A stretch of DNA of 64,000 nt from Owenia fusiformis (lineage: Eukaryota). Position numbers and translations under genes: made by a program. Shown one piece after another: positions 24,339 through 34,488 of this stretch. The notes below the pieces were generated by a model. That model did no database searches. It was given only the letters and a program-made list of their open reading frames with translations, and was not told the origin of the DNA. Each line of letters begins with the position of its first letter. Position 1 is the first letter of the stretch. The stretch covers positions 19,096,001 to 19,160,000 of the forward strand of contig CAIIXF020000001.1 in NCBI GenBank assembly GCA_903813345.2, in the 5' to 3' direction.

Positions 24339-24707
24339 TTACATAGACATTAAGATGTCCATGTTTGGCAGTTCAGGTGTGATTTCCATGTTTCGCAGTT
24401 CAGGTGTTGTAGCTTCATGCTGAGGCTCAGATTTGGTTGTAGTTATGTTTGGCAGTTCCGGTGTAGTTGTAGTGTCAACGTCAGATCCAGAAACTGAATT
24501 ATGTTTGTAATAGTCATTTACGAACAACAAGGCATTGACAACCTCAGGTTGAAATCGTGCCCGTTTGAAAGTGATGGTGTTGCCAGCTGCACTGAACTGG
24601 CGTTCACTTGACACGGATGACGCAGGAATAGCATGATATGTTTCAGCCAAACTCGCCACATCAGGATATTTTCCTCCGTTCACTTTCCAGAACTCAAGAC
24701 AGTCAAT
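24339..24707 (-). pseudogene. hAT transposase C-terminal dimerisation-domain remnant
   Basis: IDCLEFWKVNGGKYPDVASLAETYHAIPASSVSSERQFSAAGNTITFKRARFQPEVVNALLFV matches the hAT dimerisation-domain pattern. Confidence 0.9.
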
Positions 24708-24905
24708 TTTTTTTTTTTAACATATTATTTATTTCCTTCATAATCAAAAAATACACAAAATATCTACTACCAATCGCCATAGGCATTCTAGGTAGTTTAA
24801 ATTACAATAGAGGATTAATTACAGTAATCATAGATGGTTTATTGGTAATGTGAGAGGTTGGGAGGGAGGGGGGGGGGTTGTCACAAGATACAAATGAGAA
24901 AAACA

Positions 24906-27900
24906 TTAATTTGATGGAAACTTATAACAGGCCTGTACAAATTGCATCACTATATCTATCAGGATTTTCTGAGAATCAATAGTGAGTTCATTTTCATAAA
25001 TTAAGTATTTGACCTGTTCTGTCTTACTAGAAATAAGTTGAGTATCAAACAATAAATTTTGTTCACGAAGTGCAGTCATCATTTTATTACGTTCATGGGT
25101 ATGGCGAGGGCAGGTTAGAATGAAATGCTTTGTATCTTCAGTAGAGCCGCAGAGGCATTTGTTGTCAATTATTCCAGTAAAATTATGAGTAAAGAAATGG
25201 TCTTTAAGGGCAAAATCAACTCGAAGCCTATTTAGCAGTTTTTCGTTGGTTCTACTTAAATTTAGTTTTGTAGTTGGTATAAAGTTTGAAATAGGGATAA
25301 ATATCTGTTTAATAGAGCTTTTGAATCTAGAAATGGTTTGAATTTCACGAAAAGTCTGGCTTAGCTGGTTCCAATCATTTATAAGTTTTAAAACTGGTGC
25401 TTTGGAGAGTCTCATTGAAATATTTCTTGGGCAGGAAAAGGGTAAAGAGTGTCTTAAAATTCTAGTTGCTTGGTTGCGATGTTGGTCAAAAAGACTATGG
25501 ACATAATAAGGCACTTCCTTTCTTACAATTTTGAACATCAGTCTTAGATTTTTTTCGTGTCTTTTGTCAGTAAGCGATTTCCACTGTAAACATTTTAAAG
25601 TTTTTGAGGTGTTAGAGCCATGCAGTACCCCAGCACATATAACAGCAGCTTGGTAGTGGATTTTATCAAGCTTTGACAAGGCCGCCAAGGATGACGATCC
25701 GTAAATGGAGCTACAATAGTCAAAATGAGACGCCAAATATGAATTATACATTATTTCAAGATGGTGCGACTGTATTTTGTTTGATATGAGCTTCAAAGGA
25801 TTTAACAGCTTTTGAACTTTATTAGACAGATAGTTTATATGATCATTAAAAGTCAAATTCTCATCTAAGATGAAACCCAGGTGCTTATGTGATTGCTTTT
25901 GGGGGATCATTTCACCATCAAAGTAAAGCGGAGACATTTGAATATTTTTTTGACGGGTTGAGCGAAAAACTAAATGAGCACTTTTAGATGCTTTAAATTT
26001 CAATTGCCAGGTTCTAGACCATGCACTTAAAAGATTTAGGTCATTTTGGAGTTGGCCAGTTTGATTACCAGAAGGGTGAAAGAAAGAGTATAAGGAGGTA
26101 TCATCTGCATAGATAAAAGTTTTCGAGGTCAGAGTGTCAGGGAGGTCATTTATGTATATCAGAAACATCAGGGGTCCGATTATGGAGCCCTGAGGCACAC
26201 CGGAGTTTATGAAGTGGTCAGGAGAGAAGTTTGATGTGTGATCATCTACAGTGACACAGACTTTTCGATTTTCTAAGTAAGAAGAGCAGAGGTCGGCTAA
26301 TTTACCTTGAATTCCATATGATTTCATCTTGTGAATGAGTAAGTTATGCGGTACAGTATCAAAAGCAGACGCCACGTCTAAATAAACAGAATTAACACAG
26401 TTACCTTTTTCCATTTCGTTAAAGATATAGTCAGTTATTGCTAAAAGTTGTAGCTCAGTGTTGTGTCCTGGAAGAAATCCAGATTGAAATTGATAAAGAA
26501 GGTTATTTTCAAGTAGATGCGTTAAAATGCGATTATGCACAACTTTTTCAAAAATTTTGGAAAAAGTGCTTAGCAAAGTAATCGGTCTATAATTCTCAAC
26601 TTGAGATCTATCAGACTTCTTATAAATTGGAGAAATGTTTCCAAGTTTCCAGCAACTAGGAAATTGGCCACATGCAAAAATCATGTTAAACAATTTTGAT
26701 AACTGGAAGGATAATGCTTCCTGGGCTATTTTTGTCATTCTGTTATTAATTTTGTCAAGACCACAGGCTTTATCACGATCAAAGGACTGGATTATTTGAA
26801 GAATTTCATCTGGATTGGTAGATAAATGGTCAATTGATATTCCAGTTCTATTTGGAAAATGTGGAAGTGCATCGTTATCCACTTGGTTTAAATTATGATA
26901 TTTTGAAGAAAAAAAGTTAAGGAAACACTCAGCTTTTTCACCCTCAGTTGTAGCTATGTGATCTGAAAAATTGCACTTCAAACTAGGGAGTAAAGCATGA
27001 AAAGTTCTGGATAGAAAAGAATTGACTATGTTCCAGTACTGTTTTCCTTTACAGGTTGATTCATTAATCTGTTTTACAATATTTTCCTGGTAATTTAATT
27101 TTGCCTCTTTTATTAAGGATTTGACCTTTTCAGCTTGAGCAGTGTAGTTGTCAAAAATAGTTGTGTCATTTTTTGATTTGGTTTTCCGATAAAGTCGTTC
27201 TTTCTTATTGATTTCGCGTTTAATTTTTGAGTTCATCCAAGGTTGATCATTTGCATTTAAAATTGTTGTTTTTTGAGGAATGTATTTTGAAAATATGTCA
27301 AAAATATGACAAGAAAAGCTTTCAGTTGTAACATTAATGTCTCTATTACTCTGATTATATAGTTCAGTCAGGTCAAAATTACGAATGTTGGAATTTATAC
27401 CCTCAATATCAGCCTGGTCATATTTCCAAATGGTTTTCTTTAATTTGTGTCTCTTACTGAGTTTTAACAGAAGAGTGGTCAAAATAGTAGAGTGGTCAGT
27501 ATTACCAATAGGGTCAGAAACAACCAATTCCCTTACAAGAAAAGGCTTGTTTGTAATAGAAAGGTCAATGCAGGTTCTTGAGTTTCTTGTTATTCTGGAA
27601 GGCTCTTTTACTAACTGGATAAGATTTAAGTTGGATAAAATAGAGTCAAGTTTATTGCCTCTCGAGTCAGTAGTACCTTCAGGCCACCATTTTTGATGCT
27701 TGGAATTGAAATCACCGTTTATAATTAGGTGGTCACATTTTATCTTGGATGCTTTGGAGAGATTTTCCCTTAGATGGTCAAAATAAACATTTTCCTCATT
27801 TACATTCATACTAGGAGAGCGATAATGTACACCAAATAGTATTGAAGTATTTCTAACTTTGATATTAACCCAAAGACTGTTATCAGTATTCAAATCCGGC

Positions 27901-28616
27901 ATGGGAATGTAGGTAAGGTCAGATTTAATGTATATCATGAGCCCTCTACCCCCTTGATGATAAAGGGGAGAGTGATAGTCAGGAAGTAAGTAGTTTTCAG
28001 AAATAATCTTGTCATTCAAATTGCCTACTTCACAGAGTCCAGCTACCGATACCCCATGTTTTCTTAATCTATGTTTAAAACTTTCAAACCTGATACCTTC
28101 CCCACTGCTTATGCTGTTAATGTTTGAGAAAAGGAACTTGAGATCATGCTGCATGGTACATGTAGAGTGAGGACCAGGATGAGTTTCAATGTCGCCGGCC
28201 TGCAAGATTAAATCACTTTGGTCAAAAATGTAGACTGAAGTTTGAAAAATCAAGACAGTGAGTGTGAAATTGTCAAAAATATTTGCATATTTTACATTGC
28301 CTATAAGCTTCATAAGCATTTGCATTGACATAAATAATGTAACAAACATGACTGTTAACAAGTAGATTATGACCACAATAGCCATGAGCCTAGTTAATTC
28401 ATTAAAGAGTTTATTGTAATTATTTGTCAAATCAATGCAGGAAATTATATCTAAGGTGAGTAGAATAAGGTATATAAGTATTAAGACTGTTACAAAACTT
28501 GGACTTGACATTTGCCTCTTAGTACCATTGTTTTTGATTCTCAAACCTGGTATTTTGATTCTCGAGTTAAAAATTCCAATTCTGCTTCGCCACGACTGAA
28601 TGTCGACTGCACCCAT
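24906..28616 (-). CDS. LINE ORF2: hydrophobic leader, 2A-like motif, APE endonuclease, reverse transcriptase, C-terminal CCHC finger
   Basis: 1236 aa. APE motifs NINS, GLCE, YRSP, GDFN, CIDL, TDH. RT motifs YRPITLL, QSGF, LDVASAFD, GVPQGS, YADD, HLG. C-terminal CLCGSTEDTKHFILTC. Confidence 0.97.
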   Translation of the reverse strand: MGAVDIQSWRSRIGIFNSRIKIPGLRIKNNGTKRQMSSPSFVTVLILIYLILLTLDIISCIDLTNNYNKLFNELTRLMAIVVIIYLLTVMFVTLFMSMQMLMKLIGNVKYANIFDNFTLTVLIFQTSVYIFDQSDLILQAGDIETHPGPHSTCTMQHDLKFLFSNINSISSGEGIRFESFKHRLRKHGVSVAGLCEVGNLNDKIISENYLLPDYHSPLYHQGGRGLMIYIKSDLTYIPMPDLNTDNSLWVNIKVRNTSILFGVHYRSPSMNVNEENVYFDHLRENLSKASKIKCDHLIINGDFNSKHQKWWPEGTTDSRGNKLDSILSNLNLIQLVKEPSRITRNSRTCIDLSITNKPFLVRELVVSDPIGNTDHSTILTTLLLKLSKRHKLKKTIWKYDQADIEGINSNIRNFDLTELYNQSNRDINVTTESFSCHIFDIFSKYIPQKTTILNANDQPWMNSKIKREINKKERLYRKTKSKNDTTIFDNYTAQAEKVKSLIKEAKLNYQENIVKQINESTCKGKQYWNIVNSFLSRTFHALLPSLKCNFSDHIATTEGEKAECFLNFFSSKYHNLNQVDNDALPHFPNRTGISIDHLSTNPDEILQIIQSFDRDKACGLDKINNRMTKIAQEALSFQLSKLFNMIFACGQFPSCWKLGNISPIYKKSDRSQVENYRPITLLSTFSKIFEKVVHNRILTHLLENNLLYQFQSGFLPGHNTELQLLAITDYIFNEMEKGNCVNSVYLDVASAFDTVPHNLLIHKMKSYGIQGKLADLCSSYLENRKVCVTVDDHTSNFSPDHFINSGVPQGSIIGPLMFLIYINDLPDTLTSKTFIYADDTSLYSFFHPSGNQTGQLQNDLNLLSAWSRTWQLKFKASKSAHLVFRSTRQKNIQMSPLYFDGEMIPQKQSHKHLGFILDENLTFNDHINYLSNKVQKLLNPLKLISNKIQSHHLEIMYNSYLASHFDYCSSIYGSSSLAALSKLDKIHYQAAVICAGVLHGSNTSKTLKCLQWKSLTDKRHEKNLRLMFKIVRKEVPYYVHSLFDQHRNQATRILRHSLPFSCPRNISMRLSKAPVLKLINDWNQLSQTFREIQTISRFKSSIKQIFIPISNFIPTTKLNLSRTNEKLLNRLRVDFALKDHFFTHNFTGIIDNKCLCGSTEDTKHFILTCPRHTHERNKMMTALREQNLLFDTQLISSKTEQVKYLIYENELTIDSQKILIDIVMQFVQACYKFPSN

Positions 28617-29599
28617 TAACCTATGCCTGACTTGACTGCACTGTTGGTTAACTGAAAGGTATATATGCTAGTAACAAATGGTAAAAAGCTAAGTAAACAG
28701 TATTTAGAAATGTAAAAGTAATCCCCATCCCCAACCCAACCTCTATGATTGATAATTTCCAAAAGTATGCACACATGTAGTGTGTGCATGACAATAAGGA
28801 ATATGGGTACATTACACATGGTGTTATGCAACAAAGGTTTTTTGATGCAAAGATATAGGAAGTACAACTCAGTTATGGAATCATAATTACAGTAGCAAAG
28901 TACCAATTTCAGGATAAAAAGTAGCCTGGTAGCCAGCAAAATGGACTACATGACACATGAAATACAATGGGCAGCAATATTAAAACAAAAACAAAAACAG
29001 TAATACATGGCAACAATACAAAACTTGCTTGCGATTCATCATAATCATAGTATATGCTTGCAAGCTACTATAACATTTATACATTACAGTATATAGACTC
29101 TAATAGAGTAATACATACTGGAGAAAAATAAATCTAAATAGTAAAATGTTAGTCAGGCTCGTATATAAAATTCGAAAAACGAACTTCTCCAGTAGTTCTA
29201 TTTACAAAGGTGTTCGTTGAGAACATCATTATATACAGAAGGAAAAAGAACTCACCGTGTTTTTAGATTCAAAAGACAGAAACGTGAAATATAAATTTGA
29301 TAAAAGCACACTTCCGGTTTCCGGAAGGTCAAATAGTCACGTGACAGAGAGATGTAAACAAAACAACTGGAGAAAATCGTCAAGTTTAGCACGAGCAGCA
29401 GCTCATTAAGACGTTCATTTGTCAGTGAGGAAAGTTATGTTCGGTTATTTTAGGAATCTATATTGATAGTTTATACACTGATGTTACTTTCTGCATGGTG
29501 ACCAGCGTTTTCTATAACTTAAATCAACAAGGGTAACAGTGGTGAGTGAGGGAATGTTCACGAGAAAGTTATGGCAATCGTCCAAGCACACCAAGGTAA

Positions 29600-30565
29600 T
29601 TAAGACCTGGCAATGACAGAGTCAATGTTATCGTTGATTGAGAATACTTTGATTGTACCAGATTTGAGTTTACCATACACTTTCATGTTATTGTACCATG
29701 CTTGATCAATATCGTTGTGCTGCTTGACATCTTTCAGTAGTACTCTGTTTCTCGGACTGAGATCATGGTAAATTCTCACATTGGTGCCTTTTAGGTGGCG
29801 CTTGTTTGACATTACTTTGTCCTTAACAAGTCGGTCAAAGAATTTGGCTATGATTTGTCGTGGCTTCCCATCTCTTCCAGGCAAACGGTGGGCAATTTCA
29901 ATGTGATCAGGTTCAATCATAGCTCCTGCAGGCAGGTGATCATTTAGGGTTTTACAGAGAGTGTCAATACACTTTTCAACAGACTCATTTTTGTCATCAG
30001 CGATCCCAACGGCACGTAATGTGGATTTCCTGCTGTATTGAGCATTATGATTTACCTCAAGGGCTAGCTGATCTTGCTTAACAGTCATATCAGTATGGGA
30101 TTTCTCCAATATCATGATTCTGGACTTCAGAGTGTCATTTTCTTCACGAAGTTGTTTTAGATCAGTAGATAGCTTTATCGTGGATTTTTCAATTTCATGC
30201 TTCACCATATCACGGATTTGAGACATTATCTGGGTGTTATTTTCATTAAGTAATGTTCTCATAACGGTAGTAAGAGAGAGGATAGTTACCGGTTGCTCAG
30301 AATCCATATCATGTGGATCGTCTGTGGTGCATGTACCTGAGGATGCTTCACCGAGAGCTTTCTCAAAAACGTCATCGTACGGTACTGGCGAAGTTTCACT
30401 GTCCTTACTTGGGAACCCCGCTTCACGTCTATTTCGCTTCACGGGTATAGTTATCGAGGATGGCTTATCAAAGTCCTGTGCAAGTTGTCCACCATCTTGG
30501 TTTTTATCAGCACGAATTTTGACGAAGTCAGTAATCGCCGGTTGGTTGTCCTGTAGTTTGGACAT
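29600..30565 (-). CDS. LINE ORF1 (coiled coil, RRM and CTD; L1/Transposase_22-like)
   Basis: 321 aa. Heptad-rich region followed by QYSRKSTLRAVGI, IEIAHRL, PRQIIAKF and VRIYHDLS motifs typical of this ORF1 class. Lies inside the TSDs. Confidence 0.9.
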   Translation of the reverse strand: MSKLQDNQPAITDFVKIRADKNQDGGQLAQDFDKPSSITIPVKRNRREAGFPSKDSETSPVPYDDVFEKALGEASSGTCTTDDPHDMDSEQPVTILSLTTVMRTLLNENNTQIMSQIRDMVKHEIEKSTIKLSTDLKQLREENDTLKSRIMILEKSHTDMTVKQDQLALEVNHNAQYSRKSTLRAVGIADDKNESVEKCIDTLCKTLNDHLPAGAMIEPDHIEIAHRLPGRDGKPRQIIAKFFDRLVKDKVMSNKRHLKGTNVRIYHDLSPRNRVLLKDVKQHNDIDQAWYNNMKVYGKLKSGTIKVFSINDNIDSVIARS

Positions 30566-31729
30566 GGTCTCAACTAATCCGCTGTATATCGTCTATAGAT
30601 ATTTATAAATGTTTTAGATTACGATAAATCGGCACAAATGTAGATATTATCACGTAAACTGAGTAATTACTCCTAGTCTTTTACAACGTGTTATTTGTTC
30701 TTGGCGCCATCTATCAAGACAGTCAATAAAATCTATTTTACCTACCCCACCCCCATGTATACTGCACGTCGCTTGCTATTGATACAGTTGAGAAATGGTT
30801 TGAAATGTGTAATACTGGCATTTAATTTAAAACTAAAAATACATCTTGATTCGTAAGATAGTTACATTCTATTTCGTGAAGTTCATCAGTATGGGTTCAA
30901 ATCGATCTTGCACCATGTATGCATATAGACTTGAGAAGCTACGAAGAGAGTTCGGAACAAAGTGGGGGTGGCAGCGCATTGGCATTTTATCTTACATATC
31001 TTTACCGGTATTTCGGTAACGGTACGGTTATTAGCGTGACGGTTACCGGTACTGGTTTTCAGTACCGTTGCGACCTCTAACAAGTATCTGACAACAAACA
31101 AGCGGAGTCTTTGGGTGTTTAGGTGGGTGAAGAATATGAGATGACTGGAAAAATCATGTTTTCTGCGAAATTCTGTGCCAAAACAAAAATTCTGCAAAAA
31201 ATGAAAATGAAAATTTTCTGCGGTTTTTCTGCGGCGAAGCGGAATCACGGAATACTAGTATGAGTGGTTGCTGTTCTCTGATTATATTGCATAGAGCAAT
31301 ATCTTGAGTATGTAATTATTGTCATGTTAAGGCAGTATAGTTATTACATCTTCAATCCCTCTACCTCATCATGGAATAATCCCTTGTCTCTTCTACCAAA
31401 AATTACTTTTTTTTGAATTAAGAATTACTTTGGACCTGAAAATTTTTGCATGTGAGATATTTTCCTGAGTATGTATCTTATATTTTGCAAAATTAAAATT
31501 TTGGGAAATAAAATATATACGAAAATAAATAGCAGGGAAGAGCTTGATGTAATATTATCAAAAATGAATAGATCAGAACATAAAAAATCTATAATGGAAC
31601 ATCTTGAGGTTTATTAGGGACTCAAACAAAGGGATGCAAAGTGTGTATAATAACCATGTTAGAGTAGGACAAGGTAGTTACAGTTTCACCACCAGGTGGC
31701 TAATTCAGGGCAGATAACATCTGGCAGGG

Positions 31730-32085: not shown

Positions 32086-32515
32086 GTTATTGATATAGAC
32101 CCAAACCATGATCTAAATTGACATCATTATTAACTATTTGTCAAAGAATCATGAATATCTGTTTTTATGAAAAATTGGGTATAAATCTGAAAATCATATA
32201 AAATATGATCTGATTATGAAAGTAGGTGAAATCACAAAATTTAATCATGCAAACTATTTTAGATTAACAGTAATGCATAGATATGAGTAAGTCTTTAAGA
32301 CCCTTAAAGGCCAACCTGCCAAGTTAAGTATGTCCAAAGCAGTCAGCTTCAGTGAACTTCATTCTATTCTCATAAATTTTCTGTCAGAATGAATGAATGA
32401 TCACCTGTCAATTCTGCTCGCCTTCTTAAATTCTTGTTATTAACAAGCATATGCGATTTCTGCTTTCAGGTCTACAGCTCAAAAGGGGTGGCTGGAGACG
32501 AAAACAATTCCAGAA

Positions 32516-32738
32516 ATGGAAGTGGGATTACGTGTTGTACGGGGGCCTGATTGGAAATGGGGAAATCAAGATGAAGGCGAGGGTCACCTTGGCACAGTAG
32601 TGGAGATCGGAAAGCCTGGTAGCTCAACATCCCCTGATAAGACTGTGGTTGTGCAGTGGGATAATGGAACACGTACCAACTATAGAGTGGGCTACCAGGG
32701 ATCACATGACCTCAGAATAATCGACAATGCACCTATTG
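32516..32738 (+). CDS. mib2: E3 ubiquitin ligase MIB2, exon with first Mib/Herc2 domain (exon begins at 32470)
   Basis: [19 protein letters not shown]...[36 protein letters not shown] is MIB2-type rather than MIB1-type. TTTCAG acceptor at 32469, donor G|GTAAGT. The frame is open back to the acceptor, so a short N-terminal extension is possible. Confidence 0.95.
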
Positions 32739-34488
32739 GTAAGTAGTAACAGAAACATTAAATGGCCAGAATTTCATATTCTTACATAAACACTGTATCA
32801 GTTCTTCTTTTCATTATATTGACTTTCCGGTATTGACTTATCAAATTGAAGATGCAAATTCTTCCCTTCATTTAAGTAAATGAATACTAAAAATATTTTT
32901 TTATTTTCTTCCTTAAATTTTTTCTATAAATATTGTTTTATATATCCATTGCATGAAAGATGTTCCCTCCCCAAAAACCCTGTGGCAAATGCTGTTTGTT
33001 GGTCTTTTGTTAACCTCTGGCCATTAAACTACTCATAGAGTAAATTAATTACAGTTAATGCTGCTAATCTTATCAATAAAAGGGAATTGAAAATCAGTCT
33101 GTGATCTGAAAATAATGTAGACAGGATTTCTCGCTGTACATCCCTGTTTTTGGAAAAAATGCATTTCTATACTTGTATTCTCCACTGAACTTTTTTTTTC
33201 AAATAAGTGCAAATTTTTGATTCTGTTGAAAAATTGTCAAACTGTGCCAATATTTCAACATTTTCAGGTGGGTCTGAGTCTATTTCCTAATTCTCAAGTG
33301 GGTGTAGCAATCTATGCACTGACAAAATTTTGTTTTGTCAAAAAGTGTTAATTCATCTAACTGCCACATGGGTTGAGAGAACTTCTTTTCTCAAAAATAA
33401 ACATAAAAACATGAATCAGTTTATGTGTTTAATATGTTAAACGCATTTTTCATAATTTATATGAATATTGCTCGAGGTAATATGTATGTTCAATTCTAAT
33501 GCATAGAACACAAATAATGCATATAAATTGACTATTGTTGAAGCCTATAATTGAGAATTTACGTTTTAAAATAACGAATTTCAATTTAAGATTTAATAAA
33601 ATTTAGAAAGGTTGTTTAACGTTTATACACAATACACATACCATTACATGAAAACCATGTATTTTTTATAAGACATCCCAGCTTGCATGTTTCTGGGGTA
33701 TTCATCTCCCTACCTCTGTGTTACTTCCTTGCTTCCCCATTGATTAGCCGTTCTACCCTCTGGGTACGATATATGGTTTTACAATAGCCTTCTAATGATC
33801 TCGAATAGAGTTTTCTTGGAGTTTTAATTATATTTTGATTACTGGCTGAATCAGTAAGTTTTCTCATTTGAGGACAATGTACAAATTTGGACTCTTTTGA
33901 AGAGTTTTCCATACTCTGGTTCAAAAGTTAGAACTTATAAGGAAAAAGCTCTGTTCAATGAGAAAAAATCAATGCCTTATTGACTCAAAGTACATTTAGA
34001 ACAATCTATAAGGTTGTATTAAAGAGATGGATTGTACATTTCTTATTAAAAGAAGGAAATACTTCAAGCTGTTAAACTTGACCTCATTACAAATGCAATT
34101 TTTATTTGCCTAGTATATTTATAAGTGTCCACAAGTAGAAATCAAAAGCATTTTATCAACCATTGAAATAATTGCAATACTTCCTTCCTTGTTTGGTTTT
34201 TAGATAAGTTTGATCTTTCCTTGAACTTACTATAATCTCTTTGAAATGATTGCACCATTTTATTTCCTTGTATAAAAGCTCTTATTAAGATATTCATATC
34301 ACATTTAAAAAAGAAAATATAGGGTTTGGGGGAATGGGGATATAGCAAATTGCCAAACTAATTTTGGGAGATTTTCTTTTTTCTAATTTTAATTTTTAAA
34401 GTTTGAAAGGAAAACCCCTATATCCCACACTTACAACTCTGTTACATCCCTAAAAAATTATTAACTATGGGATAACACTTTTTTGTAG

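Follow-up and report, generated by a model that had tools for sequence, protein, structure and literature searches.

A predicted membrane-type leader ending in a 2A/StopGo-like motif opens ORF2 of a young LINE in Owenia fusiformis

The LINE and the leader of its ORF2

The stretch of 64,000 nucleotides analysed here (Owenia fusiformis, assembly GCA_903813345.2, contig CAIIXF020000001.1, positions 19,096,001 to 19,160,000), called the window in the following, contains a full-length long interspersed nuclear element (LINE) of about 6.0 kb. The element lies on the minus strand at positions 24708..30713 of the window, bounded by identical 14-bp direct repeats, and its layout, read on the element strand, is 5' untranslated region (UTR), first open reading frame (ORF1), 983-nt spacer, second open reading frame (ORF2), 3' UTR and poly(A). 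ORF2 (24906..28616, minus strand, 1236 aa) is composed of a leader, which is the subject of this report, a 2A/StopGo peptide, an apurinic/apyrimidinic-type endonuclease (APE) domain, a reverse transcriptase (RT) domain and a C-terminal CxCx7Hx4C region. Pfam searches placed the APE domain at aa 177-375 (27492..28088, minus strand; Exo_endo_phos, E 2e-10, with Exo_endo_phos_2 at aa 264-378, E 8.9e-14) and the RT domain at aa 666-916 (25869..26621, minus strand; RVT_1, E 1.8e-31). This succession, APE endonuclease and then RT within a single ORF, is that of APE-type LINEs, and the initial annotation, made from the sequence alone, had correctly taken the frame for a LINE ORF2. The C-terminal region, of the form RLRxxxxL...CxCx7Hx4C, is taken by us to resemble the tail of CR1/Jockey/I-type elements, unlike that of L1.

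The borders of the insertion are well defined. The target-site duplication (TSD) on the 3' side of the element, TCAAGACAGTCAAT on the plus strand, occupies 24694..24707, and is perfectly matched over 14 bp by the repeat on the 5' side, at 30714..30727. On the element strand the poly(A) tail (24707..24718, minus strand) consists of 12 A, the first of which also belongs to the TSD, and the same TSDs enclose both ORF1 and ORF2. A joint corresponding to the empty site, passing from 24693 to 30714, skips 6020 bases with 14 letters fitting both sides, and is supported by one DNA contig (run X10) as well as by RNA reads (runs X22 and X23). In run X10, DNA word depth is 33,325 at the 3' end of the LINE versus 362-446 over its 5' half, a drop which gives the usual picture of 5'-truncated LINE copies. 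TSD, A12 tail and depth pattern are those of a LINE insertion, and the element is a young, intact, full-length, two-ORF, poly(A)-tailed LINE of APE type. No second copy was found in the window by blastn or tblastn.

The leader (aa 1-148; 28173..28616, minus strand) is the predicted product of StopGo release. Its initial residue, M1, is encoded by the first ATG following an in-frame stop 18 codons upstream, and the translation of 28170-28616 on the minus strand corresponds to the first 149 residues of ORF2, ending in DLILQAGDIETHPGP, with the break between G148 and P149. The first 39 residues are polar and basic, and contain the N-terminal motif W9-R-S-R-I-G14 (28575..28592, minus strand), which takes the form [YWH][RH]xx[IVAT]G at residue 7-9 in related proteins. 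Hydropathy was evaluated on the Kyte-Doolittle (KD) scale in windows of 19 residues. Within the 1236 residues of ORF2, KD values above 1.6 are confined to two stretches: aa 35-65, with a maximum of 2.61, where hydrophobic helix 1 is located (aa 41-62; 28431..28496, minus strand), and aa 70-105, with a maximum of 2.84, where hydrophobic helix 2 is located (aa 77-102; 28311..28388, minus strand). A third, weak hydrophobic segment was identified at aa 113-131 (28224..28280, minus strand), whose KD value of 1.37 compares with 1.74-2.53 for the matching peak of the relatives. The initial annotation had described two hydrophobic stretches, a weaker third and a break at G148/P149; its translation was exact and all of these features were recovered.

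The hydrophobic segments are not explained by chance. None of the 33,060 stop-free six-frame windows outside the element reaches a KD value of 2.6; at least two non-overlapping windows at or above this value were produced by one of 5000 shuffles of the leader residues, and at least two windows by none of 5000 random ORFs of the same base composition. Second codon positions are T at a frequency of 0.46 in the leader versus 0.30 in the remaining ORF2, and each of the other five frames of the leader DNA contains 6-19 stops.

An AlphaFold2 model of the leader, built on an alignment of 13 rows (A1), has helices at residues 6-16, 41-62, 69-105 and 108-140, with a mean predicted local distance difference test score of 70.7; the N-terminal motif falls within the first of them. 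Lysines and arginines number 4-8 in the N-terminal tail, 0-2 in loop 1 and 1-4 in loop 2 in eight of eight leaders, with an acidic tail; for the leader in the window the numbers of K/R and D/E residues are 8 and 1 in the N-terminal tail, 2 and 2 in loop 1, 2 and 0 in loop 2. By prediction, at least two hydrophobic helices of transmembrane (TM) length are present with positive-inside flanks, as expected for multi-pass membrane proteins. Hydropathy, charge distribution and structural model concur in predicting that the leader is membrane-protein-like, as initially proposed. No Pfam family was found within it, a Foldseek comparison of its model against the PDB produced no match at E <= 0.001, the top rows being generic TM bundles to which no meaning was attached, and a search of the ESM Atlas yielded no usable match.

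The module may be described in four parts: a [YW]RxRIG helix, a basic linker, two strong and one weak helices of TM length, and a 2A peptide of class A type.

Relatives, coding constraint and genomic setting

Relatives were collected by using the endonuclease-reverse transcriptase (EN-RT) body as a query, obtaining 131 proteins; the counts given below refer to the best 120 of them. The closest group includes seven full-length members (P0003-P0009), of 1218-1245 aa, which share 36-39% body identity with the element in the window. In all seven, [YH]Rxx[IAT]G stands at residue 8, after the initial methionine and six further residues; there are three hydrophobic peaks, with starts at residues 40-48, 63-69 and 96-109; and D[IV]xxNPGP ends at aa 136-151. 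The leader residues invariant in the corresponding alignment (A2) are M1, R10, G14, D142, P147, G148 and P149. Whether motif, TM segments and 2A form a conserved module was the test that the initial annotation had set for itself, and the result is positive in these seven proteins, with shorter forms in sister clades.

A tree was built with FastTree on the bodies only, after removal of the leaders, from 59 rows consisting of the window and hits P0002-P0065; P0038-P0043, near-duplicates of P0037, and P0066-P0121 were left out. The window falls in a clade of 12 rows with support 100. The four clade members in which the leader is incomplete or missing are shorter (763-1149 aa): two (P0002, P0010) begin inside the leader, and two (P0011, P0012) have neither leader nor 2A. 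Motif and 2A recur in the sister group and in a second clade, of 15 rows, where leader length varies over 21-323 aa and the number of hydrophobic peaks over 0-3.

NPGP was found within the first 420 residues of 30 relatives, and no [NH]PGP beyond that point, in a total of 68,851 residues. The N-terminal motif occurs in 13 of these 30 relatives and in none of the 90 that have no 2A, 0.13 being expected by chance. On the basis of these comparisons, the leader is an inherited module of a LINE clade. N-myristoylation, for which the MG start had been considered, was dropped, as most relatives begin with MP, MN or MT.

DNA loci were retrieved from contigs carrying titles of bacterial metagenome-assembled genomes (MAGs) and from metagenome contigs. 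The N-terminal motif was found at L004, L013, L014, L081 and L102, while L007 reads FRMRIG. Variation of the 2A core was also observed: the ORF of L004, starting at 1481, contains two tandem cores, ending at aa 52 and aa 90; HPGP occurs in L005 (DIHPHPGP) and L094 (DVNLHPGP); in L081 the core is DIELNPGD, the final proline being lost. Many LINE-bearing contigs among L001-L080 are titled as bacterial or archaeal MAGs, such as Thiodiazotropha and Sedimenticola bins; they most likely are host DNA binned by mistake, because an APE-RT LINE is eukaryotic. Among 13 of the more distant 2A loci, for which 660-3760 bp of upstream sequence are available (L001, L004-L007, L010-L016, L018), none has an upstream ORF of at least 120 aa on the same strand, nor a tblastn match to ORF1 of the window upstream. 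These loci look like single-ORF elements, unlike the element in the window, which keeps ORF1. No member of the close, three-helix clade was found in the metagenome scan, the best match being 30% identical, so that no DNA-level ratio of nonsynonymous to synonymous substitution rates (dN/dS) could be obtained for this clade.

Coding constraint was evaluated at two levels. Within the family, a contig from another copy of the element (run X10, record 6; 1533 nt, matching 27925-29456) differs from the window by 12 letters and one gap. Four of the differences fall in the leader, all at codon position 3 (V121V, L70L, L74F, I46M), with a chance of (1/3)^4, about 0.012. Eleven of the 12 differences of this contig are among those listed, 66 further rows lying beyond the listing; of the 29 listed differences over ORF1 and ORF2, 25, including six of seven in ORF1, are at codon position 3. 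At a larger distance, five lineages of a related family (L003, L006, L009, L016, L025), chosen for their shared leader type from 17 hits with a 2A motif at 16 loci, have a leader of exactly 111 aa in all five cases, with no insertion or deletion. Their leader dN/dS is 0.16-0.26 (the 6 of 10 pairs that allowed an estimate) versus 0.06-0.09 for the body (4 of 10 pairs), ratios which are rough, dS being at least 1.1 and near saturation. The frameshifted or neutral leader that the initial annotation named as evidence against its own proposal was not observed wherever constraint could be measured. From substitution pattern and length, the leader is coding and constrained, mainly on architecture and hydrophobicity, and more loosely than the enzyme.

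The contig from another copy also spans the spacer (28617..29599, minus strand; 983 nt), which is for this reason a property of the LINE family and not of a single insertion. The spacer contains 20 ATGs, which, judging from their number, should block scanning or reinitiation. The element strand also shows CACGTG at 29343 and an ETS-like CCGGAAGT at 29317, followed by two splice-site-like sequences: GGTGAGT at 29256, resembling a strong donor, and CCTTTCAG, resembling an acceptor and ending at 28652, 36 nt 5' of the ORF2 ATG. The spacer may provide ORF2 with an internal promoter and an intron in its 5' UTR, or may descend from the 5' UTR that a single-ORF ancestor once had. Because of these promoter- and intron-like features, capture of the 5' end of a host gene was considered as a source of the leader, and was rejected, since LINE relatives from other sources share the N-terminal motif and the 2A. 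ORF1 (29600..30565, minus strand, 321 aa) matched no Pfam family; its residues 159-271 are weakly similar to human LINE-1 ORF1p (2ykp, E 0.05).

In three RNA-seq runs, depth summed over both strands does not exceed about 0.7 per bin over the leader (28187-28608), is zero at 28609-29030, and again does not exceed about 0.7 per bin through ORF1 (29031-30507), with values mostly of about 5-14 per bin in the 3' part of the LINE, where both strands contribute. These depths are uninformative on expression of a full-length RNA, on splicing and on an internal promoter in the spacer.

The LINE is inserted in the remnant of a hAT transposon (Dimer_Tnp_hAT, E 5.5e-19, at 24342-24716 of the window, minus strand, and flanks), beside a 27-bp tandem repeat at 24354-24407. 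The flanks are highly repeated in run X10, with word depths of 11,710-33,325, and LINE-free copies are present. An open stretch at 32444-32743, plus strand, encodes a MIB_HERC2 domain (E 5.3e-29) and probably belongs, as an exon, to an E3 ligase gene of mind-bomb or HERC2 type, in an intron of which the transposons may therefore sit.

The 2A core and the proposed function of the leader

The 2A/StopGo peptide, IFDQSDLILQAGDIETHPG|P, is of class A type and extends over aa 130-149 (28170..28229, minus strand). About 10 residues separate the end of the leader, LILQAGDIETHPG/P, from the APE domain; the conserved residues of the APE region begin at N165, and the Pfam match at aa 177. A helical, leucine-rich tract upstream of the core, typical of class A peptides, is present: SDLILQAG precedes the core and the AlphaFold2 helix at 108-140 runs into it, the corresponding tracts of the relatives being of LLILLS or LLLQAG type. 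Such a leucine-rich helix is reported to drive skipping (bioRxiv 10.64898/2026.06.17.732966). The class A core D[V/I]ExNPG|P is not reproduced exactly. The sequence reads DIETHPGP, in which D, I, E, P, G and P are kept and the asparagine is replaced by His146 (codon CAT, 28179..28181, minus strand), and is a documented variant of reduced activity rather than a canonical class A member.

[quoted passage not shown] Rao et al. (PMC12338488) report that N forms are more active than H forms among class B 2A peptides, and that H is rare among those of class A. The partial skipping anticipated by the initial annotation has in these cases its precedents, and by analogy with them is predicted as the most likely state of the copy in the window. 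The His codon is untouched by the listed differences from the other copy, 66 further rows lying beyond the listing; the histidine is probably common to at least one other copy of the family.

The interpretation that we favor, with a probability of about 0.6, is that ORF2 of this young LINE opens with an inherited leader which is targeted to the endoplasmic reticulum (ER) and released by StopGo, leaving the EN-RT free, with skipping made incomplete by the histidine. The anatomy of the leader, its conservation across a LINE clade and its coding constraint are observed features; membrane insertion and skipping at G148/P149 are plausible in the light of the sequence. The charge pattern would fit a topology in which the N-terminus and loop 2 face the cytosol, loop 1 being outside. 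Since about 30-40 residues at the end of a nascent chain are enclosed in the ribosome tunnel, helices 1 and 2 would be outside the ribosome when G148 is decoded, with the third helix and the 2A still inside. During translation of ORF2, helix 1 would on emerging direct the ribosome, together with the LINE mRNA, to the ER membrane; a hairpin of helices 1 and 2 would be inserted there, leaving the N-terminus on the cytosolic side. With one peptide bond skipped at G148/P149, the leader of 148 aa would be set free as a separate small membrane peptide, and translation would go on from Pro149 and yield free EN-RT at the ER surface. With histidine in place of asparagine, skipping would probably be incomplete in the copy in the window, and the unskipped product, still carrying the hydrophobic leader, would be unavailable for retrotransposition. 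In relatives with a strong third helix, the unskipped chain would be threaded or tethered, and skipping would keep the EN-RT usable. The module would in this way set both place and dose of ORF2p synthesis. The vesicle packaging of the ribonucleoprotein that the initial annotation also suggested finds no support in the data.

Several observations weigh against this interpretation. The histidine replaces an asparagine kept by all 30 protein relatives bearing a 2A; some class B peptides with H lose all activity, as reported in PMC12338488, and the N16A change abolishes StopGo in FMDV (PMC12846837). The third hydrophobic segment is weak. Identity within the clade is low for the leader, 19-44%, versus 36-70% for the body. 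Evidence of constraint within the family consists of four substitutions, and the dN/dS ratios, rough as they are, derive from a different family, 28% identical. Finally, no match to the leader was found by phmmer among 1.84 billion representatives, and a word-indexed search with residues 1-175 gave 308 candidates, none at E <= 0.001; the blank outcome of leader-only searches is attributed to the leader being short, of low complexity and fast-evolving.

The strongest alternative, although unlikely, is that the leader acts as a translational attenuator only: a hydrophobic, Leu/Ile-rich context of the 2A would lower the amount of ORF2p, and the peptide would be degraded, with no role at the membrane. 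The poor conservation of the leader sequence would be in keeping with this, as would literature data: a poly-Leu helix N-terminal to GDxExNPGP is reported to cause skipping as well as a fall in protein abundance, and 59% of the ORF2p-associated 2A-like peptides under test to belong to a 'reduction' class (bioRxiv 10.64898/2026.06.17.732966), while Luke et al. 2013 (PMC3894237) argue for down-regulation of ORF2 by 2A. Against this alternative, helices at aa 41-62 and 77-102 and the motif at aa 9-14 lie beyond the tunnel when G148 is decoded, so that the peptidyl-transferase centre is out of their reach. Positions are kept in eight of eight clade members, and the loops between helices follow the positive-inside pattern.

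Somewhat less probable again is that the 2A is dead, in this copy or in the family. HPGP would then give no skipping, ORF2p would be a membrane-anchored fusion, and the element a crippled descendant of NPGP ancestors. The asparagine of the 30 relatives and the H variants with no detectable activity (PMC12338488) are compatible with this view, and the occurrence of H in single copies of other families (L005, L094), beside a core defect such as NPGD (L081), would fit decay. The copy is however young and intact, with a perfect 14-bp TSD, both ORFs open and a distance of about 1% from another copy, in which no listed difference affects the His codon, so that members of the family may have H in common. 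In addition, the 2As of FMDV and L1Tc are reported to remain active, at a reduced level, with HPGP, which 20% of L1Tc copies carry (PMC3708506).

A third explanation, according to which an AT-rich 5' region is open and hydrophobic by accident and the true start is a downstream methionine, would agree with the AT-richness of the window (GC 0.345) and with the blank leader-only searches, and is highly improbable, being contradicted by the shuffle, random-ORF and six-frame controls, by the start, N-terminal motif, helix positions and 2A kept in relatives from other sources, and by the position of four out of four leader differences at third codon positions.

The proposal of a released, ER-targeted leader may be extended to a wider one, which is offered as a tentative possibility, with the odds against it. 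A whole clade of invertebrate LINEs would encode, before the StopGo site, a dedicated small multi-pass membrane protein, whose helix 1 recruits the signal recognition particle (SRP) and carries the LINE mRNA to the ER and nuclear envelope, so that ORF2p is made there in cis. StopGo would keep the EN-RT cytosolic, unskipped chains would be removed through threading or tethering by the last helix, giving an intrinsic control of location and dose, and the [YW]RxRIG helix would be exposed to the cytosol, for example holding the ribonucleoprotein (RNP) or ORF1p.

The role of the peptide upstream of LINE 2As is a question standing since 2006 and 2013, and published proposals have the 2A down-regulate ORF2 or stand in for ORF1. 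In the present case the leader is a conserved, constrained, membrane-type module with a motif of its own, in an element which still has ORF1; this points to an answer about where ORF2p is made, and not only about how much. Few links are known between membranes and the retrotransposition of non-LTR elements, and the leader would add one. Leaders of this type also offer natural multi-helix contexts, including the HPGP form, for studies of StopGo at the translocon, and a leader-2A-reporter fusion is a concrete, testable construct.

Comparison with known systems

A 2A at the N-terminus of a LINE ORF2 is already known. Peptides of D[V/I]ExNPGP type, located in the N-terminal region of ORF2p upstream of APE and active in vitro, are reported for Rex1, Crack, L2, L2A, CR1 and Ingi/L1Tc LINEs, including marine invertebrate hosts such as molluscs, with variants of the core motif among copies (Odon 2013, PMC3708506, and Heras et al. 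2006 cited there; activity in vitro is reported for Rex1, Crack, L2, CR1 and Ingi). The 2A upstream of APE described by the initial annotation is accordingly less new than was implied, having been in print since 2006 and 2013; the N-to-H variant is likewise known. Recent screens report hundreds more 2As in contigs of non-LTR type (bioRxiv 10.64898/2026.09.24.754024; 10.64898/2026.06.17.732966).

The papers on 2A-bearing LINEs discuss dose control (PMC3708506, PMC3894237), and in the main texts of both the terms transmembrane, hydrophobic, membrane and signal sequence are absent. 'Transmembrane' is similarly absent from the main texts of PMC12338488, PMC12846837 and bioRxiv 10.64898/2026.09.24.754024, and occurs in that of bioRxiv 10.64898/2026.06.17.732966 in a reference title only. 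In the literature surveyed, at the level of main texts, neither the membrane-like leader of several helices nor its N-terminal motif was found described, alone or together in a LINE that retains ORF1.

Compared with the elements of PMC3708506, the element in the window shares the N-terminal 2A upstream of APE and departs from them in two respects. In those elements the 2A is reported about 40-80 aa from the N-terminus, and most have no ORF1; here it ends at aa 148, following two or three helices of TM length and the N-terminal motif, and ORF1 is kept. L1Tc, with its -DIEQHPGP-, shows the same N-to-H core change in a LINE 2A (PMC3708506), but belongs to another clade and host, and is a single-ORF element with no multi-helix leader described.

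Other retrotransposons show that RNP assembly can be influenced by membranes or by ER-based translation: ORF1p of CR1/L2 type is reported to carry a lipid-binding esterase domain (PMC3905857), LINE retrotransposition to depend on the endosomal sorting complex required for transport (ESCRT; PMC5478143), and Ty1 RNA to undergo SRP-dependent, ER-localised translation (PMC3945221). These cases differ in proteins and mechanisms, and none, as presented in those reports, involves an ORF2 leader or StopGo.

The nearest functional analogue of the leader is the 2A-like signal of sea-urchin NLR proteins (SpNLR), in which an N-terminal hydrophobic element is combined with StopGo, giving two fates per ORF: as reported by Roulston et al. 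2016 (PMC4981915), the fused product enters the exocytic pathway and the released one stays in the cytosol. In that host immune protein the 26-aa 2A is itself a cleavable signal peptide at the extreme N-terminus. In the LINE, a retrotransposon, the 2A at aa 130-149 is downstream of the helices and separate from them, and these start after a basic N-terminal tail of 39 residues.

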